Part shown: in pieces, positions 32,260-64,000 of the stretch
How positions within the stretch are numbered: the first letter of the stretch is position 1
Layout of the letters: each line of letters begins with the position of its first letter
Source: Vulcanimicrobiota bacterium
Lineage (GTDB): Bacteria; Vulcanimicrobiota; Vulcanimicrobiia; Vulcanimicrobiales; Vulcanimicrobiaceae
Direction: 5' to 3'
NCBI GenBank assembly: GCA_963795405.1
Contig: CAWCHS010000004.1
Coordinates: 279,674 to 343,673 of the forward strand
Length of the DNA: 64,000 nt
Program-made: the position numbers and the translations under genes
The notes under the pieces: generated by a model
What the model was told of the DNA's origin: nothing
Database searches by the model: none
The model's input: only the letters and a program-made list of their open reading frames with translations

Positions 32260-32361
32260 GCCGACCGTGTTCCCTGCGAACCCGGCGAGCAACCTCTGGC
32301 CCGCTCGGGAGTTCGCGCCGGGCCGCGCACGATTCCGAGGCGATCGGCCGATATGGTAAGC

Positions 32362-34971
32362 ATGGTGGAGAGACTCGCGCACGCCGAGGTATCGGACGCG
32401 GAGGGCGTTCGCACGTGGTTGGCCGAGATCGAGCGGACCCGCGACCTGACGCTTCCCCTCCCCAGGCTCGAAGCCGCAGCCGCGGCGCACGGTACGCTCG
32501 CGCAGCGCTTTGTCGACGGGCTCCGCGAGGAGATGGCGAACTTCCGCGAGATCGTCGAGGGCGCATCCGAAGCGGCGGCGCTCAACGCGCGTCAGCTCGA
32601 CGCGATCGCCGGCACCACCGCCGACCACAGCGCCGTCGTCGAGCAAACCGCCGCGGCGATCGCCGAGATCGATCGCGGCGCCGCCCATGTCGCCGACACG
32701 GCCGAAGCGCTTCGCGCGCAGGCTGGGACCATGGCCGAGTCGACGTCGCGCTACGACGCCGGGATCGATCAGGTGCTGAGCCGGCTCGACGCCGTCGCCG
32801 CGGCGGTCGAGGCCGCGGCGGCCTTCGCCGGCGCAATGGACTCGGGCTCCGGGCAGATCTCCGCTTTTCTCGACCGGCTCCGCCGCATCGCGCGCCAAGC
32901 CGGCCTGCTGTCGATCAACGCGGCGATCGAGGCCGCGCATCTGGGCGAGCGCGGTCGCGGCTTCGACATCGTCGCGAGCGAAGTCAAGAAGCTCGCGGCC
33001 TCGACCGACGAGTCGGCCGCCAACGTGAAGACGATCGAGCGCGAGCTGCACGACGCCAGCGCCCAGGTCGAAAAAACGATCAACGAATCGGCCTCGATCG
33101 TGCGCGGGCTGGCGCGCGATCTGCACGCGGCGCGCGAGCGGTCCGGCGCGACGCGCGAGCAGGTGCGCGAGCTGGACCGCGCGATCGGCGACGTCGCCAC
33201 CATCGCCGCCGAGCAGAGCGCGAGCCTTTCGAGCGTCGCCGGCGGCGTCGAGAGCATCGCCCGCCACGCGCATGAGATCTCGACCGCCGCGGAGCGCGCC
33301 GCGCGGCTCGCGCTCGGCGACGCGCTCGCCGGCCTGCAGGCTTCGATCGGCACCTACCGGCTAGGCGAGGGCGGCGCGCACGGCGCGCACGGCGCCGGCG
33401 CCCCGGTCGAGGTGGAGTCGCTTCCGCCCGCGGTCCGTGAGGCCGCTGGCGCCCTGCGCGCGCGGGTCGATGCGGACCAGCGCGAGCTCCTGCGCGGGAT
33501 CACCGCGATCGCGGTCTCGATCGCTCGCAACAGCTACGAGTGGCGCGCGATCGCCGACGGGCTCGTTTCGCTGCGCACGCAGCTCGAGGCGACGACGCAC
33601 GCGGTCGACGAGAACGCGGCCGGTGCCGAAGTGGCGGGCGGCGCGGCGCAGCGGATGCGTGAGTCGCTCGACGCGATGCGCGCCGGGTTCGGGTCGTCGG
33701 TCGAAGAGCTGCAGCGCGCGCTCGAGCGCGTCGTGCGCGTCCGCGAGACGGTCCAGCATGCCGAATCCTACGTCTCGGCGACGACCGCCGCGGGCGACCG
33801 CGCGGCGAAGATCCTCGACCTGATCGATGCGATCTCGAGCGAGACGACGCTGCTCTCATTGAACGCCGCGATCGAAGCGGCGCACGCCGGCGATGCCGGC
33901 GCGGGCTTCGGCGTGATCGCCGACGAGATCCGCCGGCTCGCCGAAGGCACCTCGCAGGCGACCTCCGAGATCGCCGGCGTGATCGCGGGCGTCGCCGAGG
34001 CGAGCGGCTCGATGTCGCGCACGACCGCCGCGGCGGTCGCGCAGACCGCCGGCGTCTTCGACGAGACGACGCGGATGCAAGGCACGGTGGGTGAGCTGCG
34101 CAACGAGCTGAACGGAACGCTCCAGCAGGCGTCGGAAGTGGCCGGCGTCGTCGAGCAGCAGCTCGCCGCCCTCGCGCAGGTGCGCACGGCGACGCAGATG
34201 GCGCTGCGCCGGGTCGAAAGCGACACGGTCGCGGCGACCGACAGCCGCCGCCTCGAGCTCGCGCTGCTCGGGATGCGCGCGCACGGGCTCGCGGCCCGCC
34301 GCCCGCTCGGGATCGTCGCCGAGTCGATCCGCTCCCTCGGCCACAGCGTCGCCGAGCAGATGGACGCGGTCTTCGACGCCGTCATCGCGCGCCGCGAGCT
34401 GCGCCTCGACGACTTCTTCGACACGAGCTACGTCGAGCTCAAGGGCCCGCTGATCGCCCGCCTCGGACGCTTGTTCGACGTGTCGAGGGTCCCCGAGAGC
34501 GGCTTCAACCCCCCGAAGTTCGAGACGCGCTACGACCGCTTCGTCGAGGACGGGATCGACGCGATCATCGACGCGTCGGTGTCCCGCCATCCCGCGATCA
34601 AAGCGATGTTCGCGGTCGATCTGAACGGCTTCTGCTTCGGCCACTACCGCGACTGCCGGCGCGACTGGACCGGCGTTCGCACGACCGACCTCGACCACAA
34701 CCGCATCAAACGTTTCTTCGAGGACGACTTGAGCCTGCGCTGCTCGCGCGTCGGCCTCGGCGCCGGCGCCGACGATCTTGCGCGCCGCACGGCCTACGCG
34801 ACGTTCCGCGAGCGGAGCTGCGCCCTCACCCTCGACGGCGAGCGCCCGTGGGCGATCTACACCTACGCCCGCGACACCGGGATCGTCTACAACGACCTGT
34901 CCGTCGCGCTCTACGCCCAGCGCCGCCGCATCGGCACGATCCGCATCATCTACGACGCCGACGTCGTCTGA
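32362..34971 (+). CDS. Soluble methyl-accepting chemotaxis protein with two MCP signalling domains and a C-terminal sensor-like domain
   Basis: Two hairpin-tip motifs (LLSINAAIEAAHLGERGRGF and LLSLNAAIEAAHAGDAGAGF); no TM segment; C-terminal PPKFETRYD...DLNG...NRIKRFF...YARDTG. Confidence 0.85.
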   Translation: MVERLAHAEVSDAEGVRTWLAEIERTRDLTLPLPRLEAAAAAHGTLAQRFVDGLREEMANFREIVEGASEAAALNARQLDAIAGTTADHSAVVEQTAAAIAEIDRGAAHVADTAEALRAQAGTMAESTSRYDAGIDQVLSRLDAVAAAVEAAAAFAGAMDSGSGQISAFLDRLRRIARQAGLLSINAAIEAAHLGERGRGFDIVASEVKKLAASTDESAANVKTIERELHDASAQVEKTINESASIVRGLARDLHAARERSGATREQVRELDRAIGDVATIAAEQSASLSSVAGGVESIARHAHEISTAAERAARLALGDALAGLQASIGTYRLGEGGAHGAHGAGAPVEVESLPPAVREAAGALRARVDADQRELLRGITAIAVSIARNSYEWRAIADGLVSLRTQLEATTHAVDENAAGAEVAGGAAQRMRESLDAMRAGFGSSVEELQRALERVVRVRETVQHAESYVSATTAAGDRAAKILDLIDAISSETTLLSLNAAIEAAHAGDAGAGFGVIADEIRRLAEGTSQATSEIAGVIAGVAEASGSMSRTTAAAVAQTAGVFDETTRMQGTVGELRNELNGTLQQASEVAGVVEQQLAALAQVRTATQMALRRVESDTVAATDSRRLELALLGMRAHGLAARRPLGIVAESIRSLGHSVAEQMDAVFDAVIARRELRLDDFFDTSYVELKGPLIARLGRLFDVSRVPESGFNPPKFETRYDRFVEDGIDAIIDASVSRHPAIKAMFAVDLNGFCFGHYRDCRRDWTGVRTTDLDHNRIKRFFEDDLSLRCSRVGLGAGADDLARRTAYATFRERSCALTLDGERPWAIYTYARDTGIVYNDLSVALYAQRRRIGTIRIIYDADVV

Positions 34972-36973: not shown

Positions 36974-37539
36974 ACACCGGAGCGGCGCTTCTTCGCGCGC
37001 AGCTCCGCTTCCACCGCTGCGCGGAGCGGCTGCCGCGCATCGTACCAGGCGTCGGCGAACGAGCGCAGGATCGCGCCGGTCAGTCCCCAGACGCGACGGC
37101 CGTCGTAGTCGAGGATATGGCTCTCCACGATGCGCTCGGCGAACGAGATCGTCCCCTCGGTGAGCGCGTCGCTGAGGATGATCTCGAGCGGAATCGTGAA
37201 CACCGCCGCCGTCTCGCCCGCATCGATCGTCAAAGGACCCGGTTCGACGACCCCGACGAACGGCGTCACGTCGAAGACGTTCACGCGCTGCGAGACCATC
37301 GGCAGCTCGCCGACCAGGTGGACGCGCTCGGGCGCGACGCCGACCTCTTCGTGCATCTCGCGCAGGGCGGTGCGGCGCAGGTCGTCGCCGTCGGCCGGAT
37401 CGACGGCGCCGCCGGGGAGCCCGATCTGCCCGGGATGGTTCTTCAAGTGCGCGGCGCGCTCGACGAAGATCACGCCGTGCGGCGGCGAGGCCATGATCGC
37501 CAGCGTGACGGCGGCGCGGCGGCGCGGCCGGGGCGTCAT
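36970..37539 (-). CDS. Nudix hydrolase, CoA pyrophosphatase-like
   Basis: HPGQIGLPGG and ALREMHEEVG Nudix box; VWGLTGAIL. Confidence 0.88.
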   Translation of the reverse strand: MTPRPRRRAAVTLAIMASPPHGVIFVERAAHLKNHPGQIGLPGGAVDPADGDDLRRTALREMHEEVGVAPERVHLVGELPMVSQRVNVFDVTPFVGVVEPGPLTIDAGETAAVFTIPLEIILSDALTEGTISFAERIVESHILDYDGRRVWGLTGAILRSFADAWYDARQPLRAAVEAELRAKKRRSGV

Positions 37540-39080
37540 CGGCGGACCGGGCGCATCGCCAGCAGACCGTCGTCGTAGTCGAACCACAAATCGAAAAAAC
37601 GCAGCTCCTGCGTCCCGATGATCCCATCGAGCGCGATCGAGATCGCGTCGCTGCGCGGGTTCGCCGACTCGGTGCCCACGATCAGATCGCGAAACTTCAC
37701 CGGGCCGAGGTCGAGCTCGTCGACGCGGCGCGCGGTGAGGGCGATCGAGCCCTCGAGATAGTCGTCGGTGCGGTACGGTCCGCGGCGCGGGAACGCCGCG
37801 GGCTTCCAGCTGCGCTCGATCTCGGTGCGATGACGGTCGACGAACGGCGCCAGCACGTTCGGCATCGCGGAGCCCGTGTCGAGCGCGAAGCGATCGCCGG
37901 TCGCATCGCCGATCCGCACCTGGACCAGCGGGATCCCTTCGCCGACGTTCATCCGGAGCACCGCGATCTGCGGGTCGTGAAACACGCCGGCCGCCTCGTC
38001 GGCGCTCAGCACCTCGACCTTCTTTCCGGCGTAGTCGACGTGGATGACGTGCCCGTAGAAGAAATCGCCGCCGAGGATCCCGTCGACCCCGAAGTCGGTG
38101 GGGATCGCGAGCACGGAGGCGTCGGCGAGCGCGAGCGGGCCGACGCGCAGCAGCGGCAGCGTCGCATGCTGCAGCGTCGTCGTCACGCGCCGGCCGAGCA
38201 CGCTGCTCGCGACCTCGATGTCCTGCGTCCCCGTGTCGAGCACGAACTGGCGCTGCATCCCTTCCATCTCGACCGCGACGACGATGCGGTCGCCGTCGAA
38301 CCGCGCCGGCAGGGTCACGGCGCGCGGCGTGCGCGCGGCGGGCTCGAAGAGCCGCCGGTCCTGCGGCAGCGCGACGTCGGCTTCGGCGACCGGGCCGGGC
38401 TGCACCGCATCGACGCTCACGTCGAGATCGTCGGCGCGCTCGCCGTCGCGCACCTGCCACGCACGCGGGCGCCGCGCTCCGTTTTCCAGCGGGTCCGCAG
38501 TGAACCGGTCGAACGTCGTCTCGACGTCGTACTTTCCCTCGCGCGTGATCTCGCGAACGATCGCGCCGCTCGCTTCGTCGACGAAGAACCAGTGCGGCTT
38601 GTCGTGCGGCGCGCGGTCGACGACGACCCAGGCCGGTGCGGGACCGGACGTTTCGCCGCTGAGCTCGCAGTCGGCCGCCGAGAACGGAAAGAGACTCTGT
38701 GGAAGCCGGTCGAGCGGATCGCCTTGATCGTCGGACCAGGTCGCGTGCACGATCCCGTTCGCGTCGGCGCGCCAGCGCACGCCGTGCAAGCGTCCCGCCT
38801 CGTACGTTGCCGAACCGAGCCGAATCGTCGAGCGAAAGTCGTCGCCGCGCACCGCGACGTCGACCGCGATGCGCCGTTCGCCGGTCGCGTACGTCCAGCG
38901 CTCGCGCCGCTCGCGCGGCGCTGCGGCGCCGGCCGCCCGCGCACGAACCGCGAGCACCTCGAGCAGGGTCGCGCTCGTCGCATGCAGATTCGCCGGCCGC
39001 CACTCCGACGCGCCGGCCCGTGCCGCCGGCCCTGCGAGCGCAAGAGCCGCGAGAAGCGCCGTCGCCCCCAGCCGGTTCAT
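37536..39080 (-). CDS. Secreted protein with two retropepsin-like aspartyl protease domains
   Basis: Signal peptide; FVLDTG and FALDTG; DGILGGDF and DGIIGTQEL. Confidence 0.75.
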   Translation of the reverse strand: MNRLGATALLAALALAGPAARAGASEWRPANLHATSATLLEVLAVRARAAGAAAPRERRERWTYATGERRIAVDVAVRGDDFRSTIRLGSATYEAGRLHGVRWRADANGIVHATWSDDQGDPLDRLPQSLFPFSAADCELSGETSGPAPAWVVVDRAPHDKPHWFFVDEASGAIVREITREGKYDVETTFDRFTADPLENGARRPRAWQVRDGERADDLDVSVDAVQPGPVAEADVALPQDRRLFEPAARTPRAVTLPARFDGDRIVVAVEMEGMQRQFVLDTGTQDIEVASSVLGRRVTTTLQHATLPLLRVGPLALADASVLAIPTDFGVDGILGGDFFYGHVIHVDYAGKKVEVLSADEAAGVFHDPQIAVLRMNVGEGIPLVQVRIGDATGDRFALDTGSAMPNVLAPFVDRHRTEIERSWKPAAFPRRGPYRTDDYLEGSIALTARRVDELDLGPVKFRDLIVGTESANPRSDAISIALDGIIGTQELRFFDLWFDYDDGLLAMRPVRR

Positions 39081-39120
39081 CGGCCCGGCGTTCGCTTCGG
39101 GCTGCGGCCTTTCCCGGACG

Positions 39121-40239
39121 CTAGGCGCGCGGCACGGCGAGCGTGAAGCGCGCGCCGCCCAGCGGAGAGCGTTCCAGCGTGATCCGTCCTCCGGCGCGCT
39201 CGACGATCAGCCGCGCCAGCGCGAGCCCGATCCCGGTCCCGGCGGCGTGCGTCGCCCCGCGCTCCCCCAGCTCGAAGATCCGCTCGCGATCGATCGCCGC
39301 GATCCCGGGACCGTCGTCGTCGACCGTGATGCGGACGCGGTCGGCGCGCGCCGCGTCGATGCCGATGAAGACCCCGCCGCCCGTCTTGCCGTGCTTCACC
39401 GCGTTGTCGATCAGATTCACCAGAACGAGCGTGAGCTGGTCGAGTCCGATCGCGACGGCGAGGGCCGGCGGGTCGGCGAACGCGATCCCGACGCCGCACC
39501 GAATCGCGTTCGCGGTGCACGCGTCGTGGGCGGCGTGCAGCGCGTCGCGCACCTCGCATCTGGCGCGCGCGGGGCCGACGGCGTGCAGATCGAGCAGCGA
39601 GATCTCGAACATCCCTTCGACCAGCCGGCTCAAGCGCAGCGACTCGCCGTGCGCGATTCGCATGAAACGCGCGCGCGTTCCGGCGTCGATCTCACCGTCG
39701 AGGAGGGTCTCGAGGTAACCGCGGATCGAGGCGAGCGGCGTGCGCAGCTCGTGGCCGAGCGAGGAGAAGAACGCGTAGCGTTCTCGCTCCTGCGCCCCGC
39801 GCAGCAGCGCGCGCTCGATCACCGCGCTCGGCTTCCCGGCGTCGGATGCCGCGTCGTAGGTCGTCCAGCCGCCGAGGACGTCGAGCCGCGTCGCGGACTC
39901 GAGCGTCGCGGCGATGCGCGCCAGCGCGGAGCGCGCGTCGGCTGCGGGCGGCACGTCGGCTCCGCCGCGCGTCGGCGCGAGCAATGCCGCCACGAACACG
40001 TCGCTGGCCGCGTCGTGCGCGACGAGATCGCCGGCGCGCAGCACGCGCAGCGCCGCGGTCGAGAACGCCGCCGAGGCGCGCCGCTCGAGCGCGCGCGCCG
40101 CACGCAGCCCACGCCGCCACGCGACGCGCTCGAGCCCGGGCAGGCGCACCACCAGCACCGGCGGCCCGCCGGGCGGTGCGCTGGCGAGCCGGCGTTCCAG
40201 CGCGGCGAGCGGGAGCAGCAGCGAAGCGGCTTCAGCCAC
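39121..40239 (-). CDS. Soluble sensor histidine kinase (HisKA/HATPase_c)
   Basis: GHELRTPL, NLIDNAVKHG, DDDGPGI, GTGIGL. Confidence 0.9.
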   Translation of the reverse strand: MAEAASLLLPLAALERRLASAPPGGPPVLVVRLPGLERVAWRRGLRAARALERRASAAFSTAALRVLRAGDLVAHDAASDVFVAALLAPTRGGADVPPAADARSALARIAATLESATRLDVLGGWTTYDAASDAGKPSAVIERALLRGAQERERYAFFSSLGHELRTPLASIRGYLETLLDGEIDAGTRARFMRIAHGESLRLSRLVEGMFEISLLDLHAVGPARARCEVRDALHAAHDACTANAIRCGVGIAFADPPALAVAIGLDQLTLVLVNLIDNAVKHGKTGGGVFIGIDAARADRVRITVDDDGPGIAAIDRERIFELGERGATHAAGTGIGLALARLIVERAGGRITLERSPLGGARFTLAVPRA

Positions 40240-40962: not shown

Positions 40963-41388
40963 TCAGGCCTCGTCTTTTTGCAGGGTTCCTTCGCCCTCGA
41001 GGACCGTCTCGCCGCGCTGGTTGACGACGACCGCGAGCACGCGCAGCCGCCGGCGCTCGGGGAGCAGCTCGGTCACCTCGGAACGCGCGGTCAGCGTGTC
41101 CCCGATGAAGACCGGAGCGCGAAAGTGCAGCGTCTGCGCGACGTAGATCCCGCCGGGGAGCTGCAGCAGCATCCCGGTCACCGTCGAGAGCAGGCTCGCG
41201 GTCAGCATCCCGTGCGCGGCGCGCTGCCCGAAGCGCGTCGTCTGCGCGTACTCGGCGTCGACGTGAAGCGGGTAGAAGTCGCCGCTGACGCCGGCGAACA
41301 GCAGCAGATCGGCCTCGGTGATCGTCTTGCTGAACGTCGCCGCATCGCCGACACGAAAGTCTTCGTACCGCTTTTGCGCGAAGCTCAC
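40963..41388 (-). CDS. MaoC family dehydratase
   Basis: FAGVSGDFYPLHVD, AHGML, FRAPVFIGDT; GTGA overlap. Confidence 0.9.
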   Translation of the reverse strand: MSFAQKRYEDFRVGDAATFSKTITEADLLLFAGVSGDFYPLHVDAEYAQTTRFGQRAAHGMLTASLLSTVTGMLLQLPGGIYVAQTLHFRAPVFIGDTLTARSEVTELLPERRRLRVLAVVVNQRGETVLEGEGTLQKDEA

Positions 41389-43145
41389 GACTCCGCGTCG
41401 GAGCCGCGCACGCGCACGACGTCGAGCGGTTCGGCGAGGCCGCGCAGCGCGAGCGTTCCATGCTCGGCGCCGGGGAGCGCGCCGCGCACGCGCGCATCGC
41501 CGGCGAGCGCCGCCGTGAAGAGGACCTCGCCCACTCCGGCGGCGCGCGCGACGCGCGCGGCGAGCGCGACCGTCGCGCCGGCGTAATCGAGCCGCTCGTT
41601 GGCGCGCAGAGCGACGCACGGCCCGACGTGCGCGCCGGCCCGCATCGGCAGCGGCGCCGCCGCGGCGAACGCCTGCGCGGCGAGCGCCGCGTCGCGCGGC
41701 TCGGCGAACACCGCCATCGCGCCGTCGCCGGTCGTCTTGACGAGCGCACCGCGGTGGACCGCGACGACGTCGTGCAGCGTCTCGAACTGCTCGGCGATCA
41801 GCGCGCTCGCGCGAACGTCGCCGAACTCCTCGTAGAGCCGCGTCGCACCGGCGACGTCGGTGAAGAGCATCGTCTGCTCGCGCAGCGGGAAGGTCGTTCC
41901 CGCCGCGACCGCTTCCTCGGGAAAGAGGTCGCGAAACGCCTGCAGCGCGACGATCCGCGCCGCCGTCGCGACGTCGGCGGCCGGCGTCTCGGCGCTCACG
42001 CGCAGGGGCAGATGGCGCGCCGAATCGTTGACGACCGCGATCCGGACCGTGCCCGGCAGGACGGACGCCGGCTCGACGCGCAGCGCGCCGGCCGCGGCGC
42101 TGACGCCTAGCGAGCGCGCGCCCGCGCCGTCCTCGACGCCGAACGCGGCGTCGGCTCCGCCGGCGCGGATGCGATGCGGCCCGGTCGCCAGCACCGCTTC
42201 GGCCTCGGCCGAGAGGTGCGGCGCGACGCGGAGCTGGGCGTGCGCGCGCGGCGCGCCGCGCGGACCGGTCGGCCGGTCGGGGTCGACGGCGCCGCGATCG
42301 CTCGCGCGGCCGTCGAAGACGATCTCGACCGTCCGGTCCAGCTCGACCGGAGCGCCGAGCTCGCAGCCCTCGCAGCGAGCCTCGCGCGGCAGCGCCGACA
42401 ACACGGGCGCGCCGCCGCACCAGCCGCCGCAGCCCGGGCAGACGATCCGCCAGTCGTAGTCGAGCAGCCCTTCGCGCGCGGCGGCCAGCATCGCCGCCGC
42501 GACGCGTTCGCGCGCCAGCCCCCAGGCATCGGCCAGCCCGAACGGCCGCATCGCGCCGAGCGGCGTCGGTCCGGAGCGCTCGACGAACGCGGCGAGCCGG
42601 CTCGCGACGGCGAGATCGTCGGCGCTGTGCGGCCGCAGGACGTCCAGGGCGTCGACGAAGCGGGCCGTCCCCGCGGCCGAGGCCTGCGCGGCGCCCCCGC
42701 CGCCTTCGGCCAGGGCGATCGCCCGGGTCACGGCGGCGGCCGCGGCCGTTCGCCGGCGCGCGAGCACGATCGGCGCCAGCATCGTGCCGAGCCCGCGCTG
42801 CGCCTCCAGCGTGACCGCCTGCTCGACGCGTGACCCGCCCTCCTCCGGGGCGACGGTCGTGTCGCAGACGAACCGCGCGAAGGGTCCGCGCCGGAAGACC
42901 CGCTCGACGGTGACCCGCCGCGGCGCCTCCCAGGTCCACGCCGGCTCCTCCCATTCCACCGCGAACGGACCGAGCGCGGCGCGGCCGATGGTCGCGCCGG
43001 CCCCGTCGTCGCGCGGCTCGCGCTCGTACTCGGCGTCGGGGAAGCTCCCGTCGCGCTCGAGGGCCCCGCTCGCGCAGAGCGCCCGCCACACCGCGTCCGG
43101 CGCGGCCACCGACGTGAAGGTCGCGGACTCTTCGAAGCTCTTCAT
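41385..43145 (-). CDS. Class III adenylate/guanylate cyclase with N-terminal SRPBCC-like and DUF5939-like domains
   Basis: LFTDV, VKTTGDGAMA, GAHVG, LDY; CPGC/CEGC motif; APDAVWRAL N-terminus. Confidence 0.8.
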   Translation of the reverse strand: MKSFEESATFTSVAAPDAVWRALCASGALERDGSFPDAEYEREPRDDGAGATIGRAALGPFAVEWEEPAWTWEAPRRVTVERVFRRGPFARFVCDTTVAPEEGGSRVEQAVTLEAQRGLGTMLAPIVLARRRTAAAAAVTRAIALAEGGGGAAQASAAGTARFVDALDVLRPHSADDLAVASRLAAFVERSGPTPLGAMRPFGLADAWGLARERVAAAMLAAAREGLLDYDWRIVCPGCGGWCGGAPVLSALPREARCEGCELGAPVELDRTVEIVFDGRASDRGAVDPDRPTGPRGAPRAHAQLRVAPHLSAEAEAVLATGPHRIRAGGADAAFGVEDGAGARSLGVSAAAGALRVEPASVLPGTVRIAVVNDSARHLPLRVSAETPAADVATAARIVALQAFRDLFPEEAVAAGTTFPLREQTMLFTDVAGATRLYEEFGDVRASALIAEQFETLHDVVAVHRGALVKTTGDGAMAVFAEPRDAALAAQAFAAAAPLPMRAGAHVGPCVALRANERLDYAGATVALAARVARAAGVGEVLFTAALAGDARVRGALPGAEHGTLALRGLAEPLDVVRVRGSDAES

Positions 43146-43240
43146 TCCGACCTAGCGGTGAGGGCCGGCATCGAGCGCGAACGATTCGACACGATGAGGC
43201 CGCCTTTGATCGCTCGCTCTCTCCTCCCCTTCGGACTCGC

Positions 43241-45108: not shown

Positions 45109-45180
45109 TGACTCGGGTAGGATTTGAACCTACGACCTAGGGCTTATGAGTCCCCCGCTCTACCGCTGAGCTACCGAGCC
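45109..45180 (-). tRNA. tRNA with CAT anticodon (elongator Met or Ile2)
   Basis: GGCTCGG/CCGAGTC acceptor, CT CAT AA loop, TTCAAAT; G1-C72 pair so not an initiator; no CCA. Confidence 0.9.
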
Positions 45181-45290
45181 GTTGCCGTCCGTGCGTCGAA
45201 CGCACGTCGATTATCCAGAACACGTCAAGACCCTGCCGGGCTGCGTGCGTGCGGCAGGCCCCGGGCCGGGGGCTCCGCCAAGTGTACGGC

Positions 45291-46931
45291 ATGACGTTCC
45301 GGGTGTTTACCTCCCTGGCGGTCGCGGCGTTGCTCGCGAACGCTGCATCACCGCTTCCCTCGGCTGCTGCGCAGGACGACGCAGCCGCGGTCATGGCGCG
45401 ACACGCAGCCTACGTCGGCGCTCCGCAAGGCCTCGTGCTGCGCTATCGCTTTGAACGCGACGCCTCCGCGACGCCGCGGCCCTCGCCCTCGCCCGACGAA
45501 GCCGACATTCCCAAGAGCGGTCCGCCCGAGACGGTGACCTATCGGCGTGGCGCGCTCTTTCGCCAGCTCGGGTCGGGGAACGGGAACTCGACCGAGAGCG
45601 GCTTCACCGGACGCGCGTTCTGGGAGGCCGACGACAACGGCTACACCGTGCTCTTGCTGGAAGACCAGGGCCGTCGCGCGCTCACCGAAAACGCGCTCGA
45701 CAGCGATCAGCTCGCCGGCGCGACGCTGGAGTCGCGCGGAACGCGCACCGTGAACGGTATCCTCTGTGACATCGTGCGCGTCACGCCGCCGGCGGGCGTC
45801 ACCGCCGAGGTCGCCGTCGACCGCGCGACCGGCGGCTTCGTGAAGATCGTCTACGAACCCGACGACCGCTACGTGCACGACGACGAGACGATCGTCGGCT
45901 ACAAGGAGATCGCGCCCGGCGTTCGCGTCCCGGGCGCGTACAAGGCCGCCCACGGCGAATACAAGCTCGTCGACGGCACCGTGCGCGCGGTGACGAACGA
46001 CGAGCTCCGCGGCCCGGTGCCGACCGCGAAGTGGACGTTCGCCTCGACGGATGCGACGCCGATCGACGTCGTGACGCGCACGCCGGAGTTCGGGTTCATG
46101 CCGCCCGGCAAAGCGGTGCACGTGCACGCGACGATCAACGGAACGCCCGGAACCTTTCTGCTCGACTCCGGCGACGGCGCGGACATCCTGCTCTACAGCG
46201 CCTTCACCGACAAGCTCGCGAAGAAGCTCACGACGATCGGCCGCACCGGCTTCTCGGGGATCAACGGGCGCGGCGTCGCCGCGCGGCTCGAGCGCGTCGA
46301 CACGCTCCAAGTCGGGAAGAACACCCTTTCGAACGTCTCCGTCTCGGTCGCGAAGGGCGGCTTCGGCGCCGACATCGACGGGATTCTCGGCTTCGACTTC
46401 CTCGCCGGCGCGATCGTCGACGTGAACCTCGCCGAGAAGACGATTCGCATCCTCGACCCGAGCGTCTACGAGCCGACCGTCGTCAAAGGCGCCTACGCCT
46501 TTCCGATCAATCTGGCGAGCCGCCAGCCGGGGATCTCGCTCCGCGTCGGCGACGCCGAGACGAAAGCGGTCTTCGACAGCGGCGACTCCTTTCTGGTCTC
46601 GCTCAGCGACGATCTCCTGCGCAGCCGGCGCGTCGTCGCGCTCACCGACACCACGCGCATTGCGGACCCGTATTCCGGCGCGCCGATGGAGTTCCAGTAC
46701 AACCTCTTCTTCGTCGGCGTCGACGGGCCGACAAGCGTTCCGGCGAAGTGCTCCCGCATCAACCAGCTCGAGGTCGGTCCGTACCGCTACGAGCGCGTCG
46801 AGACGTGCTTCGCGCCGGCCGAGGTGTTCGGAAAGGACGGCGGCCTGATCGGGATGGACTTCCTCCAGCACTTCAACTGGACGTTCGACTACGTCGACTC
46901 GAAGCTCGTGCTCACGCCGAACGGGCTCTGA
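45291..46931 (+). CDS. Secreted protein with two retropepsin-like aspartyl protease domains
   Basis: Signal peptide; FLLDSG and AVFDSG; DGILGFDF and GLIGMDFL. Confidence 0.78.
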   Translation: MTFRVFTSLAVAALLANAASPLPSAAAQDDAAAVMARHAAYVGAPQGLVLRYRFERDASATPRPSPSPDEADIPKSGPPETVTYRRGALFRQLGSGNGNSTESGFTGRAFWEADDNGYTVLLLEDQGRRALTENALDSDQLAGATLESRGTRTVNGILCDIVRVTPPAGVTAEVAVDRATGGFVKIVYEPDDRYVHDDETIVGYKEIAPGVRVPGAYKAAHGEYKLVDGTVRAVTNDELRGPVPTAKWTFASTDATPIDVVTRTPEFGFMPPGKAVHVHATINGTPGTFLLDSGDGADILLYSAFTDKLAKKLTTIGRTGFSGINGRGVAARLERVDTLQVGKNTLSNVSVSVAKGGFGADIDGILGFDFLAGAIVDVNLAEKTIRILDPSVYEPTVVKGAYAFPINLASRQPGISLRVGDAETKAVFDSGDSFLVSLSDDLLRSRRVVALTDTTRIADPYSGAPMEFQYNLFFVGVDGPTSVPAKCSRINQLEVGPYRYERVETCFAPAEVFGKDGGLIGMDFLQHFNWTFDYVDSKLVLTPNGL

Positions 46932-46964
46932 TCCCTCCCCAGACCGCTGTTCGCTAGGAGATTG

Positions 46965-48479
46965 ATGATGAAAACGAGCGCCCGGGGTGCGCTCGCGGTC
47001 GCGGCGATGCTGCTCGCCGCGACCGCCGTCCCCGCCCATGCCGACGACGCGCGGGCGCTGCTCGCCAAGCACGCGGCGTACGTCGGCTGGCAAGCCGGCG
47101 ACGGCACCGTGACGAGCCTGCGCGAATCGGGCGCGGTCACGCTCGACGGAAAGGTTCGCGAAACGATCGAGTCCGTGCATCGCGGGTTCGTCTACCGCGA
47201 GCGCTACGGCGCCTTCCAGGAAGGTTTCACCGGCCGCGTGCTCTGGACGTCGAACGCGAACGGCTTCACCGTGCGCAGCGTCGGCGCGCCGGCGCAATAC
47301 ACGGCGACCTATCAGTCGCTCTTCGGCGAGGCGCTCGACGGCGCGCCCGCGACGGTTCTCCGCAGCGAGGAGCTGAGCGGGACGCCCGTGACCTGGGTGC
47401 ACCTGCAGCCGCAGGTCGGCGTCGCCGCCGACGTCGCGATCGATCCCGCCACCGGCGCGTTCAAGCGCGTCGTTCTCGATCCCGGCGGGAAATACGAGAC
47501 GACGATCGACGTGCTGAGCTACGCCGAGATCAGCGGCGGGAAGCGGGTGATCTCGTCCTGGCGGTACGGCGCCGGCCACTCGGTCTGGGCGTACACCGAG
47601 ATCAAGGCGAACGTTCCGGTCTCCGACGCAGAGCTGCACCCGCCGGCGCAGCGCGCGAAGTGGACGTTCGATCCCGCGAACACGCCGATCCCGGTCGAGC
47701 TGACCGAGCACCGCATCCTGATCGACGCGACCATCAACGGCGTGAAGGGGCGCTTCATCTTCGACACCGGCGCCGACGGCATCGCGCTGACCGATACCTT
47801 CGCGCGCCGCGCCGGGGCGAAGCGGCTCGGCCAAACCGAGATCGAAGGGATCGGCGGAGGCGCGCGCGCCAACGTCTACAAGGTCGACACCGTCGCCTTC
47901 GGCGGCAGCGTGCTGCACGACGTCGTCATCGACACCGGGCTCGACGAACGCGGGCCGATGTTCCAGGACACGGCCGGCCTGATCGGCTTCGATCTGCTCG
48001 GCGGCGCGATCGTCGACATGGACCTCGACGCGAAGACGATGCGCATCATGGACCCGCAGAAGTTCGAGCCCGACAAGAGCAAAGGGATCACCGTTCCGGT
48101 CGACCTGACCACCGGGCAGCCCCGTGTCCCGATGACGGTCGGCGGGCGGGTCGCCGTGCTCGCGACGCTCGACAGCGGCAACCCGGCCTGGGTGATGTTC
48201 AGCAAGTCGCTGCAGTCACGCGACCATGTCAGCTTCTTCGTCGACCCGACGGCGCTCGTGCAAGAGATCCAGTTCTACGGCGTCAACGGCAGCGAGATCG
48301 ACCGCTGCGGCAAGCTGCAAAGCTTGAACCTCGGCCCGATCTCCTACGCCCCGGTGCCGGCCTGCGCATCCGACTCGATGGCGCGCAGCGAAGTCCTCGT
48401 CGGCCTCGAGTTCATCCGCGCCTTCAACACCGTCTTCGACTATCCCGACGGCTACCTGGTGATGACGCCGCGCAAATAG
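46965..48479 (+). CDS. Secreted protein with two retropepsin-like aspartyl protease domains
   Basis: AGGAG SD; signal peptide; FIFDTG and ATLDSG; GLIGFDLL. Confidence 0.8.
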   Translation: MMKTSARGALAVAAMLLAATAVPAHADDARALLAKHAAYVGWQAGDGTVTSLRESGAVTLDGKVRETIESVHRGFVYRERYGAFQEGFTGRVLWTSNANGFTVRSVGAPAQYTATYQSLFGEALDGAPATVLRSEELSGTPVTWVHLQPQVGVAADVAIDPATGAFKRVVLDPGGKYETTIDVLSYAEISGGKRVISSWRYGAGHSVWAYTEIKANVPVSDAELHPPAQRAKWTFDPANTPIPVELTEHRILIDATINGVKGRFIFDTGADGIALTDTFARRAGAKRLGQTEIEGIGGGARANVYKVDTVAFGGSVLHDVVIDTGLDERGPMFQDTAGLIGFDLLGGAIVDMDLDAKTMRIMDPQKFEPDKSKGITVPVDLTTGQPRVPMTVGGRVAVLATLDSGNPAWVMFSKSLQSRDHVSFFVDPTALVQEIQFYGVNGSEIDRCGKLQSLNLGPISYAPVPACASDSMARSEVLVGLEFIRAFNTVFDYPDGYLVMTPRK

Positions 48480-58735: not shown

Positions 58736-59245
58736 TCAGCGGAGCGCGCGCGGCGGGCCGAGGACCTCGGCCAGGATCACCGCGGTCCGGGCATGCGCCG
58801 AGTCGCCGAACGCCGCCGCGAGCGTCCAGCCGGAGCCGGCCGGAGCGCCTGAGGGGACGGCCGGCCGCAGCGCGGGCGAGGGCGGAAGGCCCGTCGGGCG
58901 AGGAGCCGGTGGAACGCTGACGGGCCCGGCCGCGGCACCCGTGGCGGGAGTAGTAGCGCCCGCGGGGCCACGCGGAAGCGCGCTCCGAGACCGCTGCTGC
59001 AGCGTCTGCCGGATTTCGAGCAGCTGCAGCTCGGCCGGCGAGGGTCCGCGCGGTGCGGCACCCAGCGGCACGACGGCGTACGGCGCGATGCCCGGCGCGA
59101 CACCGGATGGTGCGGCGCCGCGCGTCTGCGCGGCGTCCGGCCGCGCCGCGGCGGTGCGCTCCGCGACGCGCGCGGCGGCTTTGCGAAGCTGGTTCACCGC
59201 CGCGATGAGGGTCACGGCGATGACGATCCAGGCTCCCGGATTCAC
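58736..59245 (-). CDS. YqfB-like hypothetical protein
   Basis: N-terminal TM, low-complexity middle, C-terminal [15 protein letters not shown]; follows floA. Confidence 0.6.
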
Positions 59246-60255
59246 GACGTCGACGAGACCGGCGTGGCGGAGGCCGAGGCGTCTCCGGCGCCGACGCTCG
59301 AGCCGATCGCGCCGCGCATCTCGGTGTCGGCTTTCACGTTGTTGAGCTTGTAGTAGTCCATCACCCCGAGGTGTCCGGCGCGGAACGCTTCGGCGATCGC
59401 TTCGGGGATCTGCGCCTCGGCCTCGACCACCTTCGCGCGCATGCGCTGCGTCTCGGCCTTCATCTCCTGCTCGGCGGCCTGCGCGGCGTACTGCCGCTCC
59501 GAGGCCTTCGCCTGCGCGATGCGGCGGTCGGCTTCGGCCTGCGAGGTCTGCAGGTCGGCGCCGATGTTCTTGCCGACGTCGACGTCGGCGATGTCGATCG
59601 AGACGATCTCGAACGCCGTCCCCGCGTCGAGCCCTTTCGCCAGCACGGCCTTCGAGATGCGATCGGGATACTCGAGCACTTCCTTGTGGTCGATGGCGGC
59701 GCCGACGGCGCTGACGACACCTTCGCCGACGCGCGCGACGATCGTCGGCTCTCCGGCGCCGCCGACGTAGCGGTCGAGGTTCGAGCGCACGGTGATCCGC
59801 GCTTTGACGTTGAGCTGAATCCCGTTCTGCGCGACGCCCTGGAAGATCGGCGTTTCGATCACCTTCGGGTTCACCGAGGTCTGGAGCGCTTCGAGGACGT
59901 CGCGGCCGGCGAGATCGATCGCGGCCCCGCGCTGCCACTCGAGCGGGATCTGCGCGCGCTGCGCGGCGATCATCGCCAGCACGACCTTGTCGACGTTGCC
60001 GCCGGCCAGGATGTGCGACTGCAGCTGATCGACGGTGAGCGGCAATCCCGCCTTGCGCGCGCGGACGAGATTCGAGACGATCAGGCCGGCCGGAACCCCG
60101 ATGATCCGCATCCGAATCAGCGAGCCGATCGAGAGCGGAACGCCCGCGGCGATCGTCCGCACCCACAGTCCCAGCGGGAAGTAGTACAGGAACAGCACGA
60201 TCAGGATGACGATGGCGATAACGACCACCGCACTGAGTGCCCCGAGCTGCGTCAT
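59242..60255 (-). CDS. floA: Flotillin-like protein FloA (YqfA)
   Basis: [51 protein letters not shown]. Confidence 0.95.
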
Positions 60256-60289
60256 GAGGTCCCTTCCTAGAGGAATCGCGCGCGGTCCG

Positions 60290-61618
60290 CTACAGCGGGC
60301 GCACGAAGATGCGCGACCCTTCGACTCGCGTTACCCGAACCGGTGTCCCGGCCGGAACGAAATTCCCTTCGGTGAGCACGTCGACCCGCGTCGCCTCGAT
60401 CGTTGCGACGCCCGTCGGACGGAGGAAGGAGTCGGCGACGCCGCTCTTTCCGAGCAGCGAACGGTAGTCGGCGCTCGCGACGTAATCGCTGCCCTGCGCC
60501 CCCAGGAACATCAGCCGCTTCGCGAACGCGTTCTCGGGGATGAAGCGCCGCGCGATCGCGAACGCGACGGCGCTGAGCACGATCGCCACCGCCAGCGCCT
60601 CCAGCGCGCCGACGAAGAACGCGAGTCCGAAGGCGAACACGACCGCCCCGACGAGCAGCACGAGGCCGAGCACCCCCGGCACCCCGTGCCCCGGGAGGAC
60701 GTGCAGCTCGAGCAGGATCAGCCCGAGCCCCAGCAGCGCCGCGAACACCACCAGGTCGTTCGAGAACCCGGCGTACACGTGGGTCCCGAAGAACAGCGCG
60801 AGCGACCCGGCGCCGATCGCGCCGGCGACGAGGTGCAACGTCTGCAGCTCGATCAGCAGCCCCAGGAACCCGACCGCCAAGAGGATCCCGCTCACGTCGG
60901 GGTTGGTCGCGATCCGGGCGACTTGCTCGGCGAACGAGTATGACGCGTTCGCATGCGGCGCGCCGGCGAGGTCGAAGGAGGCGAGCGCGGCATCGAAGGT
61001 CGGCTCGATCGCCTCGGCGATCCCGGCCTGGCGTGCCTGATCTGCGGTCAGCGTGAGAATCGCGCCGGGTGCCTTGTAGCGCGGCGCGTCGACTTGCGGA
61101 TCGACCATCGCCGCGGCGAGGGTCGGGTCCCGATGGTAGCGCGACGCCGTGGCCTCGAACTCGGCGCGCAGCGCGGAGATCGTCTTGACGGTGGTCGGGA
61201 TCGGCTCGGCGGCGCCGATCGAGCCGGTCGGCGCCATCGCGATGTGCGCGGCGGACAGACTCACCAGGGCGCCGGCGGACCACCCGCGCGTCACGTAGGC
61301 ATCGACCGGGACGGGGCTCGTCAGCAAGGTGTCGCGAATCTCGGTCGCCGCGCTCACCAGCCCGCCGAACGTGTTCACGTCGAGCACGATGGCGCGCGCG
61401 TGCTGCGCGCGGGCGTCGGCGACGGAGCGCTCGACCAGATGCGCCATCCCCTCGTCGATCGTCCCGTGGATCGGGACGACGACGATCTCCCGGCCGGGGG
61501 ACGCGGCGGGATCGGCCGACGCAGCCTGGCGGGTCAGCACCATCGCGGCGAACGCGACGTACAGGCCGAGGGCGAGGGCGGTGATGAGCAGGCGGACCAC
61601 GAGGGGGCGAGCGGTCAC
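60290..61618 (-). CDS. nfeD: Long NfeD family membrane protein (YqeZ-like)
   Basis: NTFGG, SAGA, IGAAEP ClpP-like domain; TM bundle; C-terminal OB ([13 protein letters not shown]). Confidence 0.9.
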
Positions 61619-61628
61619 GTCAGGCTGT

Positions 61629-61649
61629 ACCTCGGCGAACCGCCGAGGT
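61629..61649. other. 9-bp perfect hairpin between yqeY and nfeD
   Basis: ACCTCGGCG-AAC-CGCCGAGGT; no U tract. Confidence 0.5.
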
Positions 61650-62149: not shown

Positions 62150-64000
62150 TCAGCGTCCCTGGTGGAAACGCACCTGTAGCCGGATCGTCCGCGGCAGCGT
62201 CGGGATCGCGAACGGGATGTACGAGGACTGCTGAATCGCCCCGCTCGGTCCGAGGTAGTTGCCGACGATCGGCGTCCCGACGTTCGGCAGCGGCAGATAC
62301 TGCAGGTAGTTGTTCGTGTTCAGCAGGTTCTCGACCGAGACTTGCAGCTCGACGGCGCGCGTGATCGGATGGCGCATCGTCAGATCGAGCTGTGCGAACG
62401 GCAGCTGATAGTACGGGTTGTTCCGTCCTTCGTAGTCGACGCCGAGCGCAGCGTACGAGCCGTCGCGCATCGTGTAGGTGAACTGCGTGTAGCCCTTGAG
62501 GTACGGGATGCACACGGGGTTGTTCGGATTCGCGAGGCCGTTGCCGCAGATCTGCACGTTGGTCGCCGGAACGGTCGGCTGCGCCGCCGACGTCCCGAAG
62601 ACGCTGGCCGGGATCCCTTCGATGAGCGCACGCTCGGCGGTCGCCGCGACGTTGAACCCGAAGCCGGTGCGCGGCGCGTACGTGTACTTCAGCGTCGCGA
62701 GCTGCGAGCGCTCGCGCGATGCGTTGATCGGCTCGGTGGTGAACAGCGTTCCGCCGCTGATCCCCGACGATCCCGGCGCGCCCGCGACGGTGAGCGGCTC
62801 GAAGACGTTGCGGATCGTCAGATCCTGCAGATCGAGCGCGAGGACCGCGCCGTTGCCGAACCGTTTGTCGGCGCCGAGATCGAGGCCGAAGCTCTGCTCA
62901 GGGTCGAGGAATGGGTTCTTCTTGAGCAGGAAGGCGTTGTTGTTGGTCGTCGCCGAGGGCGGCTGGTAAAACGGCGAGCCCGTCACCTGGCCCGGATACG
63001 GGAACGTCTCCGACGAGCCGGCCGAGAAGCGGTACGAGAGGTCGTTGGTCGGGCGGAACGTCAGCGCCAAATGCGGGTCGAACCGGTTGAGCTGACGGTT
63101 CAGCGGCGCCAGGACGGCGTTTCCGGCGGTCACGACCGTCTGGTCGCCGAGCAGCTTCCAGGTCGTGTCGTACAGGCCGACCTGAATCCCGAGGTTGCGC
63201 ACGAGCCGCAGATCGCCGGTCAGCGAGAAGGTGGTGTAGCGTTCCGTCGAGTTGGGGACCGCGATGTTCGTCGGCGTGTTGTAATACGCGAACACGTCGG
63301 TCGCGTGGTAGTCGTAGTTGAAGCCCAGCAGGCTGTCGCCGACGGGGTACAGCAGCGACGCCGTCCCGCCGTACAGCTTGTCCTCCTCCAGCTCGCTGAA
63401 CGGCGCCTGGAAGCACTCTTCCTGTCCGTTGTAGTAGCCGCGCTGCCCGCTCGGACTCGTGCTCTGGCTGAACGGGCTGTTGCACTCCGAGTCGAAGGCG
63501 CTCGTCGAGGGCGGTGCATAGAGCGTGCTTGGCGGGGGACCGAAGAACTCCGGATAGTACCCTTCGCCTTGGCCGTCGACCACGTCCGGCTGGATGTTGC
63601 CGGCGTAGGGGCGCAGCAGCAGCGTCCCCTTCCCGATCGCGGTCCGGAACTCGGCGTCGTACATGCCCTGGTTGAAGTAGACGTTCGAGCCCGGATACCA
63701 GGCGTATGCGGGGATCTTCTTGCCGATGTACTCGGAGTCGAGCGGGTTCGTGCACTGACTCGTCGTCGTCGGCGCGCCCCCGAAGCAAGGCTCGATCGTC
63801 GTCAGCCCGAGATAGGTTCCGTAGGCGACGCCCTGCGGCAAGTAGCCGCCCCACGCGCCGACGAAGTCGACCTCGAACGAGGTCGACGGCGTGAAGTTGT
63901 AGCGCAGCTTCGCGATCTCGCCTTTCTGGAACAGCGAGCCGCTGGTGTTGCCGCAGAACTGGATGATCCCGGTCGACGCCGGCGTGTTGTCGTTCGAGGA
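62150..64000 (-). CDS. TonB-dependent receptor, C-terminal barrel (5' end outside window)
   Basis: LDPEQSFGLDLG, alternating beta strands, VSVENLLN, PRTIRLQVRF; frame open to the window edge. Confidence 0.85.
   Translation of the reverse strand, partial: SSNDNTPASTGIIQFCGNTSGSLFQKGEIAKLRYNFTPSTSFEVDFVGAWGGYLPQGVAYGTYLGLTTIEPCFGGAPTTTSQCTNPLDSEYIGKKIPAYAWYPGSNVYFNQGMYDAEFRTAIGKGTLLLRPYAGNIQPDVVDGQGEGYYPEFFGPPPSTLYAPPSTSAFDSECNSPFSQSTSPSGQRGYYNGQEECFQAPFSELEEDKLYGGTASLLYPVGDSLLGFNYDYHATDVFAYYNTPTNIAVPNSTERYTTFSLTGDLRLVRNLGIQVGLYDTTWKLLGDQTVVTAGNAVLAPLNRQLNRFDPHLALTFRPTNDLSYRFSAGSSETFPYPGQVTGSPFYQPPSATTNNNAFLLKKNPFLDPEQSFGLDLGADKRFGNGAVLALDLQDLTIRNVFEPLTVAGAPGSSGISGGTLFTTEPINASRERSQLATLKYTYAPRTGFGFNVAATAERALIEGIPASVFGTSAAQPTVPATNVQICGNGLANPNNPVCIPYLKGYTQFTYTMRDGSYAALGVDYEGRNNPYYQLPFAQLDLTMRHPITRAVELQVSVENLLNTNNYLQYLPLPNVGTPIVGNYLGPSGAIQQSSYIPFAIPTLPRTIRLQVRFHQGR

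Follow-up and report, generated by a model that had tools for sequence, protein, structure and literature searches.

The stretch of DNA analysed here, called the window, comprises 64,000 nucleotides from a Vulcanimicrobiota bacterium (GenBank assembly GCA_963795405.1, contig CAWCHS010000004.1, positions 279,674 to 343,673 of the forward strand), and its subject is the gene at 32362-34971 on the plus strand. It was confirmed that this gene encodes a membrane-free chemoreceptor, in which two complete signalling hairpins of the methyl-accepting chemotaxis protein (MCP) type are followed by a sensor-like C-terminal domain. The protein, a fusion receptor specific to its phylum, has reached the double-tip design by convergence and carries in addition a sensor from an unannotated family; it does not belong to the DosM/F9 type. 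The explanation that best accounts for the observations overall, and is held tentatively, is that this fused, orphan, soluble receptor acts as a two-layer sensor and staple that feeds a Che pathway with pilus-based movement as its output.

Gene and domain layout

The gene occupies a single stop-free frame, 32362-34971 on the plus strand, inside a longer open frame, and its translation gives 869 residues. The copy found in the protein collection, P0001, starts three codons upstream at 32353; the start at 32362 is favoured because the orthologues open with MVE or MVG. The features of the gene (aa, amino acid positions) are the following.

32362..34971, plus strand: whole gene, encoding an orphan soluble chemoreceptor with two hairpins; 869 aa and a stop codon, alternative start 32353
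32362..32472, plus strand: N-terminal cap, aa 1-37; helix at aa 8-26, conserved W19/L20...R27-D28-L motif
32473..33363, plus strand: signalling hairpin 1, aa 38-334; N-arm about 158 and C-arm 138 residues, ending Y-R-L-G
32887..33009, plus strand: tip 1, aa 176-216, IARQAGLLSINAAIEAAHLGERGRGFDIVASEVKKLA; mean column conservation 0.87
33364..33426, plus strand: inter-hairpin linker, aa 335-355; Gly/Ala/Pro-rich, lowest conservation (0.41)
33427..34308, plus strand: signalling hairpin 2, aa 356-649; N-arm about 155 and C-arm 138 residues, ending R-R-P-L-G
33832..33954, plus strand: tip 2, aa 491-531, ISSETTLLSLNAAIEAAHAGDAGAGFGVIADEIRRLA; mean column conservation 0.90
34309..34968, plus strand: C-terminal domain of an unannotated family, predicted PAS/Cache-like, aa 650-869; motifs LFDV, F-x-PPK, DLN, NRIKR and Y-x-RDTG
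34633..34821, plus strand: clade-specific Cys/His cluster C758, H761, C765, C794, C820; each at least 90% conserved in 86 orthologues

The protein was cut in thirds and scanned with Pfam, where the MCPsignal family (PF00015) has a gathering threshold of 34.6 bits. Two matches were obtained, one at aa 129-301 with 79.0 bits and the other at about aa 463-612 with 76.1 bits, which excludes a receptor with only one signalling domain. The consensus of the hairpin tip, N-A-A-I-E-A-A-x-x-G-x-x-G-x-G-F, occurs twice with His for the usual Arg, as NAAIEAAHLGERGRGF at aa 186-201 (nucleotides about 32917-32964) and as NAAIEAAHAGDAGAGF at aa 501-516 (about 33862-33909), and is invariant or nearly so in the 86 orthologues. 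Sequence matches to solved structures were all to chemoreceptor cytoplasmic domains: the Thermotoga maritima TM1143 structure aligns with aa 396-623, and 3ur1 and 4jpb, which contain T. maritima receptor fragments crystallised with CheA and CheW, align with aa 166-233 at an E value of about 1e-9. The highest Kyte-Doolittle mean over 19 residues is 1.42, in an Ala-rich coiled-coil stretch, compared with 2.51 in a relative that contains a transmembrane segment. A transmembrane helix is absent, since this peak lies under that of a genuine membrane segment.

The first-pass annotation, made from the sequence alone, had described an 869-residue chain lacking a transmembrane helix, with two complete MCP tips near 32900 and 33850 and with the sensor-like domain at the C-terminus rather than the N-terminus. 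All of this was borne out by the frame, the hydropathy profile and the two MCPsignal matches; the sensor-like domain measures about 220 residues and is PAS/Cache-like in the model.

Signalling hairpins, tips and linker

Conservation is expressed as mean column conservation in an alignment of 86 full-length orthologues with a mean identity of 64%. Both tips outrank every other segment, with tip 2 at 0.90 and tip 1 at 0.87, followed by the C-terminal domain at 0.79 and the helical arms at 0.67-0.72; at the low end stand the N-terminal 44 residues (0.46) and the linker (residues 333-356, 0.41). The linker lies between two conserved motifs, Y-R-L-G and L-P. In members that are about 40% identical or less, the arms show no insertions or deletions, and length change is confined to the linker, which varies from about 0 to about 45 residues. 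Both tips are intact and under strong purifying selection, and the arm lengths are fixed and matched. The two tips share the sequence EAAH, with His for the usual Arg, whereas single-hairpin relatives keep EAAR, and they are distinguished from each other by a fixed difference, G-E/D-x-G-R-G-F versus G-x-A-G-S/A-G-F.

A full-length AlphaFold model was obtained with a mean predicted local distance difference test score (pLDDT) of 87.9 and a predicted template modelling score (pTM) of 0.67, pLDDT falling below 50 only at aa 1-9 and 338-345. In this model, the N-arms have 158 residues (38 to 196) and 155 residues (356 to 511), the C-arms are equal at 138 residues each (E196-L334 and D511-L649), and each N-arm overhangs its C-arm by about 20 residues. 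Two helices are so placed that they could cover these overhangs, 8-26 for hairpin 1 and 652-676, which opens the C-terminal domain, for hairpin 2. The model has just two isolated bridge residues, 28 and 333, and this suggests a contact of the N-terminal cap with hairpin 1 at its Y332-R-L-G end. In size, the N-arms of 155-158 residues correspond to about 22 heptads, like the 44H receptor TM1143, and the C-arms are about 3 heptads shorter. Foldseek searches with the full-length model recovered nothing but single MCP hairpins and long coiled coils, at root-mean-square deviations that are meaningless.

A side clade of divergent double-hairpin relatives (P0290, P0293 and P0279) has a degenerate tip 1, EAAYV..GGF, which is 1-2 residues shorter in two of the members, and its tip 2 has the canonical EAAR again. 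The same proteins deviate in the C-domain motifs NRIKR and YARDTG, strongly in P0290 and P0293 and mildly in P0279. In this clade, tip 1 integrity, the His substitution and the sensor are apparently coupled.

The C-terminal sensor-like domain

The last 249 residues gave no Pfam match even at E ≤ 10, and the C-terminal domain matched nothing in NCBIfam or, in both single-sequence and profile searches, in the PDB. When the domain was modelled alone with ten diverse homologues, a pLDDT of 89.4 and a pTM of 0.87 were reached, and the modelled fold consists of a long helix and then a five-stranded antiparallel sheet with flanking helices. Using Foldseek against the PDB, nearly all of the top 50 matches were found to be Cache, PDC or PAS sensors (5ere, Tlp3, DctB, WalK, 3bwl). 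The domain models confidently as a predicted PAS/Cache-like fold, with weak match scores.

A profile search among 1.84 billion representative proteins, with clusters counted at 50% identity, recovered 1,734 clusters at E ≤ 1e-3 and 1,059 at E ≤ 1e-10. The domain represents a large unannotated family of presumed cytoplasmic sensors, with more than 1,700 such clusters. Among the sequences inspected, the domain is typically carried at the C-terminus of a soluble single-hairpin MCP that measures 500-600 residues; it also occurs in versions that combine a transmembrane segment with HAMP (P0096) and, at 222 residues, in stand-alone form. In 150 diverse C-domains, Y690, K719, D725, D753, N755, D776, R781, K783, R784 and R796 are near-invariant, a polar set that forms the pattern expected of a ligand pocket.

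The residues C758, H761, C765, C794 and C820 follow a different distribution, none of them reaching 70% conservation across the domain family as a whole. By secondary-structure position in the model, they map to strand 2 and the following helices. Since PAS domains hold ligands in this region, the cluster may be a site for a metal or a cofactor, or a redox site.

One of the stand-alone C-domains, the 222-residue P0138 (locus L007, 5188-10669), lies on an Eremiobacterota-like contig directly after a Liv-type ATP-binding cassette (ABC) transporter operon, which encodes a periplasmic binding protein, two ATPases and two permeases. This placement hints that the domain may sense a transported metabolite.

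Distribution and integrity of the gene

In a search of a large protein collection, about 95 clusters were found to span the whole query, 36-88% identical to it and nearly all 848-897 residues long. These full-length relatives derive from NCBI, ENA, JGI and Logan assemblies and are nearly all labelled Candidatus Eremiobacteraeota, Elarobacter or Velthaea; the labels of a few metagenome-assembled genomes (MAGs) differ (Acidoferrum, Limnocylindria, Xanthomonadales). When GTDB was scanned with one genome for each species, 14 loci that carry the gene were identified, all in Vulcanimicrobiota (Eremiobacterota). The closest of the GTDB-representative loci, at 80% identity, is in a MAG of 'Candidatus Baltobacteraceae', a name that corresponds in NCBI taxonomy to Vulcanimicrobiaceae, the family of the sole cultured member, Vulcanimicrobium alpinum. 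The architecture is kept throughout the 86 full-length orthologues, which come from independent assemblies. Judging from this distribution of homologues, the receptor belongs to the conserved repertoire of Eremiobacterota (Vulcanimicrobiota), a phylum that is mostly uncultured.

The same data bear on the idea that an error of assembly or gene calling merged two adjacent MCP genes. Only the unusual architecture speaks for such an artefact, and its probability is negligible: the frame is unbroken across the gene, the clusters of 848-897 residues were recovered from four sources of assemblies as well as from the 14 species-representative loci, and neither a stop codon nor a start context was ever seen in the linker. 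Since independent full-length orthologues share the same architecture, the protein is not a fusion artefact. Mis-assembly and a hidden internal stop, which the first-pass annotation had named as ways in which its reading could fail, were rejected on the continuous frame and the approximately 95 independent full-length relatives.

Proposed origin by fusion of two receptors

Each hairpin is closer to single-hairpin receptors than to the other hairpin. Hairpins 1 and 2 are 26% identical over 216 residues, with a score of 38 bits, compared with 102 bits for hairpin 1 against P0270 and 110 bits for hairpin 2 against P0207, both of which are single-hairpin proteins that bear the C-domain. The end of hairpin 1, ...GTYRLG, is the Y-x-L-G junction that directly precedes helix 1 of the C-domain in P0146, P0177, P0192 and P0195. 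The end of hairpin 2, ...ARRPLG, matches that of P0168, and P0207 is similar (AAQRSVA). Because these junction motifs descend from receptors of the hairpin plus C-terminal sensor type, a fusion of two paralogous receptors is proposed. Two soluble receptors, each with a 44H-sized hairpin and a C-terminal PAS/Cache-like domain, would have been joined end to end, and the sensor of the upstream unit would have been lost after the fusion, leaving a short disordered remnant linker in its place. The scores and motifs indicate that fusion with loss of the upstream sensor is the simplest history, and single-hairpin C-domain receptors are evidently the ancestors of both halves.

Two metagenomic proteins show related arrangements. 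P0161 (1063 aa) has two complete hairpin-plus-C-domain units in one chain, and P0253 (844 aa) has one complete unit and then a second hairpin. Both resemble a fusion intermediate, and loss of the first sensor from such a chain could yield the architecture seen in the window.

Relation to DosM and F9 systems

DosM of Vibrio cholerae (VC1403), together with a triple CheW, has been described as the signature of F9 systems, whose genes are arranged DosM-W3-B...R-Y-A. F9/DosM has been assigned to the 44H heptad class, and the baseplates lie 35 nm apart. It has also been reported that 98% of DosM homologues are sensor-less, that 2 of the 78 surveyed carry a sensor, CZB in both cases, and that flagella are present in 97% of the species that have an F9 system.

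Two 640-residue two-tip proteins, P0101 and P0102, were among the weak matches of the first search. P0313, a member of the DosM-type cluster, provided a locus that was used as the positive control for an F9 gene cluster. Its 3' neighbour is a 519-aa protein with three CheW domains, after which the cluster continues with CheB, a HEAT protein, CheR, CheY and CheA and then a small unannotated open reading frame (ORF), a second CheY, an MCP and a ParA-like protein.

Aligned with the DosM-type control by BLASTP, the window protein scored 57 bits over 150 residues around a tip, and the best alignments of hairpins 1 and 2 both fell on the first domain of the control, so collinearity with DosM fails. 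The spacing between the tips is 315 residues here versus 300 in the control, whose arms measure about 150 residues; followed along the helices, the distance between the two tips amounts to about 291-296 helical residues with the linker added, in agreement with the DosM-type 300. The junction of the control, judged by eye, is helix-like and has no Gly/Pro-rich break.

It is very improbable that the protein is a true DosM orthologue, an F9 array scaffold that has gained a sensor. Such a descent would account for two MCPsignal domains in one soluble chain and for the similar arm lengths, and there is a precedent in the two sensor-bearing homologues. However, the genuine P0313 has the published F9 order, with the triple CheW and then CheB, CheR, CheY and CheA, and neither the window nor any of about 20 related loci has such neighbours; the similarity is confined to the short stretch given above, and the junction motifs point to single-hairpin receptors that bear the C-domain. 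DosM orthology was rejected against this control on the lack of collinear similarity and of che neighbours. These comparisons showed that the protein resembles DosM in design and not in ancestry, its origin being independent.

A complete betaproteobacterial F9 cluster (L025/L026, 1-21900; DosM-CheW3-CheB-HEAT-CheR-CheY-CheA...MCP-ParA) lies about 5 kb from phage-type integrase, YqaJ, DUF932 and Gp3-like genes. It may be carried on an integrated element, which fits the reported horizontal transfer of F9 systems.

Gene context and the Che pathway

The absence of che genes from the window, noted in the first-pass annotation, was upheld by searches that extended to related loci. A Pfam scan of the 30 large ORFs of the window found no che, flagellar or pilus gene and assigned ordinary housekeeping and transport functions. 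When the CheW3, CheA, CheB, CheR and CheY proteins of the control were used in phmmer against six-frame ORFs of the window and of about 20 related loci, taken with flanks of ±10 kb, only generic receiver domains were matched, and Pfam annotation of the orthologue neighbourhoods gave no more than this. The gene is an orphan receptor gene. MCP genes often sit apart from che operons.

Immediately upstream, on the opposite strand, lie a cytidylate kinase-like gene and then 2-oxoacid:ferredoxin oxidoreductase genes; downstream are a homologue of zinc-type alcohol dehydrogenases, a TrkA-type channel and a NUDIX hydrolase. The neighbourhoods of the orthologues vary between lineages, with a major facilitator superfamily (MFS) transporter and a metallo-beta-lactamase-fold gene 3' of the orthologue in 8-9 loci. 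In four loci, a Flp/Tad-type pilus block directly precedes the receptor gene and has the same orientation. No sigma-70 promoter or intrinsic terminator was found, a result that is uninformative at 70% G+C.

The pilus block (L001/L015, 5095-9958; also L009, L013 and L014) consists of small ORFs, a prepilin peptidase of the A24 type, a 493-aa ORF and a secretin. This arrangement is not kept in the lineage of the window. A functional link of the receptor to pili is possible from this adjacency.

The gene table of V. alpinum contains cheA (as two ORFs), cheW, cheY, cheC, cheB, cheR and three mcp genes, along with type IV pilus and Tad pilus genes and no flagellin. The first-pass annotation had also named a genome lacking cheA and cheW as a way in which its reading could fail; V. 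alpinum, of the same family, has both. Pilus-based positive phototaxis has been reported for this bacterium. F1-type systems have been described as using 44H receptors, and the V. alpinum system would fit the F1 type because CheC is present.

Several other genes of the window were observed in passing. Three paralogues of about 500-590 aa at 37539-39206(-), 45150-46928(+) and 46932-48476(+) have a retropepsin-like Asp_protease_2 match, which is weak and below the Pfam threshold in 37539-39206(-); two of the paralogues are in tandem, and a similar gene is present in the syntenic locus L006. At 41388-43151(-), about 6.5 kb from the receptor gene, a second-messenger enzyme is encoded that combines DUF5939 with an adenylate/guanylate cyclase domain of class III. 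The end of the window (59245-61648(-) and 62153-64000(-)) holds a FloA flotillin and NfeD pair, then YqeY and a TonB-dependent receptor that runs past the window end.

Proposed mechanism and alternative explanations

Soluble receptors have been found to form two layers that face each other, and their sensor domains are presumed to occupy the mid-plane. By analogy with other MCPs, the protein would dimerise. The transducing unit would be hairpin 2 with the C-terminal domain, as in the single-hairpin ancestors. The C-terminal domain would bind a cytoplasmic ligand or cofactor, and the signal would pass through the N-terminal helix of this domain and the C-arm to tip 2 and from there to CheA via CheW. 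Hairpin 1 would be a second intact docking module, tethered at the kinase-distal end, so that one molecule could fill two receptor positions of the array. Because the tether joins the hairpins at their middle, kinase-distal ends, the simplest arrangement would place one hairpin in each layer of a two-layer sandwich with the sensor at the mid-plane, making the protein both sensor and staple. The output would run through the Che pathway of the family (CheA/W/Y/C/B/R), most likely steering pilus-based movement in non-flagellated bacteria.

A role in stapling or coupling arrays is plausible because the tips are the most conserved segments and the arms are similar in length to the 44H size that has been given for DosM. 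Dimerisation, bridging of two layers, ligand sensing and output are all drawn by analogy with other receptors. The first-pass annotation had suggested that the protein could bridge two CheA/CheW baseplates and make array assembly ligand-dependent, and both ideas stand as hypotheses.

Several observations weigh against the proposed explanation. The two hairpins are not connected by an unbroken helix, residues 335-355 being Gly/Ala/Pro-rich and non-helical, and this disordered, variable linker stands against the Gly/Pro-free, helix-like junction of the DosM-type control; with such a linker, the spacing of the baseplates would not be fixed. No CheW, CheA, CheR or CheB methylesterase was found in the 64-kb window or in the approximately 20 related loci. 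The structural matches of the C-domain are weak, with a best E value of 1.6e-3 and template modelling scores of 0.3-0.6 at Foldseek probabilities of up to 0.99. The pTM of 0.67 of the monomer model may also mean that the hairpins pack side by side.

This last point leads to a same-layer arrangement, which is a possible but unlikely alternative. Here the two hairpins would lie side by side with both tips at one end and a single baseplate, either as an intramolecular four-helix bundle (a 'pseudo-dimer' with one sensor) or as two neighbouring dimers of one trimer-of-dimers, and the tips would specialise, for example one in the CheA/CheW contact and the other in the trimer contact. The exactly matched arms, which lack insertions and deletions family-wide, would be expected of such packing, and a loop of 0-45 residues is tolerable as the turn from the end of C-arm 1 to the start of N-arm 2. 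The pLDDT of 87.9 and pTM of 0.67 are arguably above expectation for loosely tethered rods, the unusual EAAH is common to both tips and yet fixed differences separate them, and the divergent clade combines a degenerate tip 1 with a canonical tip 2. However, a single-chain bundle would have only one C-domain, whereas the single-hairpin relatives presumably signal as dimers, and AlphaFold monomer models of dimeric coiled coils often self-pack artificially. The decayed tip 1 of the divergent clade is also consistent with a hairpin 1 that does not dock to the kinase at all and acts as a spacer, a localisation element or a non-Che docking site, or with a whole protein that is an MCP-like regulator outside arrays. 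The orphan gene, the non-flagellated state of the sole cultured family member and the four related loci with the gene directly after a Flp/Tad-type pilus block would agree with this alternative. It is nevertheless quite improbable, since tip 1 of the main clade is as conserved as tip 2, with an invariant N-A-x-I-E-A-A...G-x-G-F core, and matches the T. maritima fragments of 3ur1 and 4jpb that were crystallised with CheA/CheW; an orphan position is also common among MCP genes.

The tentatively preferred sensor and staple model can be given in a more specific form. This would be an independently evolved, sensor-bearing 'array staple' with a tip in each of two opposed CheA/CheW layers and a ligand- or redox-binding domain at the mid-plane, where a cytoplasmic cue modulates or couples both kinase layers and steers pilus-based, possibly phototactic, movement. 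In this full detail, the proposal is doubtful.

Comparison with known systems

To our knowledge, all double-hairpin receptors described so far form a single lineage, DosM, which is linked to F9 systems and nearly always sensor-less. The receptor of the window would represent a second origin of the double-hairpin design, in a sensor-bearing form, with its gene apart from che clusters and in a phylum whose sole cultured member moves by pili. If the proposed role is confirmed, the covalent pairing of two kinase-docking tips would be a recurrent solution for membrane-free arrays, and if the staple model is true, the C-domain would define a new and widespread family of cytoplasmic chemoreceptor sensor domains. 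Since V. alpinum has just three annotated MCPs, the role of such a receptor in its phototaxis would be genetically tractable, if one of them is this receptor.

The likeness to DosM that had been drawn in the first-pass annotation stands for the two intact, conserved tips and the similar arm lengths, and it fails for gene context, descent, junction and sensor content. Like DosM, the protein is soluble, carries two complete hairpins per chain, which are 44H-like in size (arm lengths of about 150-158 residues), and would have the reach, in principle, for the span of a two-layer cytoplasmic array. Unlike DosM, it is encoded outside an F9 cluster with no adjacent triple CheW, shows only generic, non-collinear MCP similarity, has a disordered and variable linker and C-arms about 20 residues shorter than its N-arms, and bears a C-terminal domain with a predicted PAS/Cache-like fold. 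The hosts differ as well, F9 hosts being 97% flagellated and the sole cultured member of the window phylum non-flagellated.

Helicobacter pylori TlpD and other cytoplasmic receptors with C-terminal sensors (CZB, PilZ and PYP fusions) share the lack of a membrane segment and the position of the sensor after the hairpin. They have a single signalling domain, however, and the sensor of the window protein is not CZB, PilZ or PYP. Also close are the uncharacterised single-hairpin soluble MCPs with the same C-terminal domain (such as P0169, P0172, P0177, P0207 and P0270), which are homologous across the hairpin and the C-domain and share the Y-x-L-G or RRPLG junction and a related N-terminal cap motif; they differ in having one hairpin and canonical EAAR tips and in lacking the Eremiobacterota Cys/His cluster. 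For the sensor itself, the predicted fold is like that of Cache/PDC/PAS sensors, such as the extracellular domains of DctB, Tlp3 and WalK and the PAS domain of the HTR-like 3bwl. Unlike these, the C-domain of the window protein is cytoplasmic and C-terminal, is without a Pfam sequence match and has an invariant set of residues of its own.

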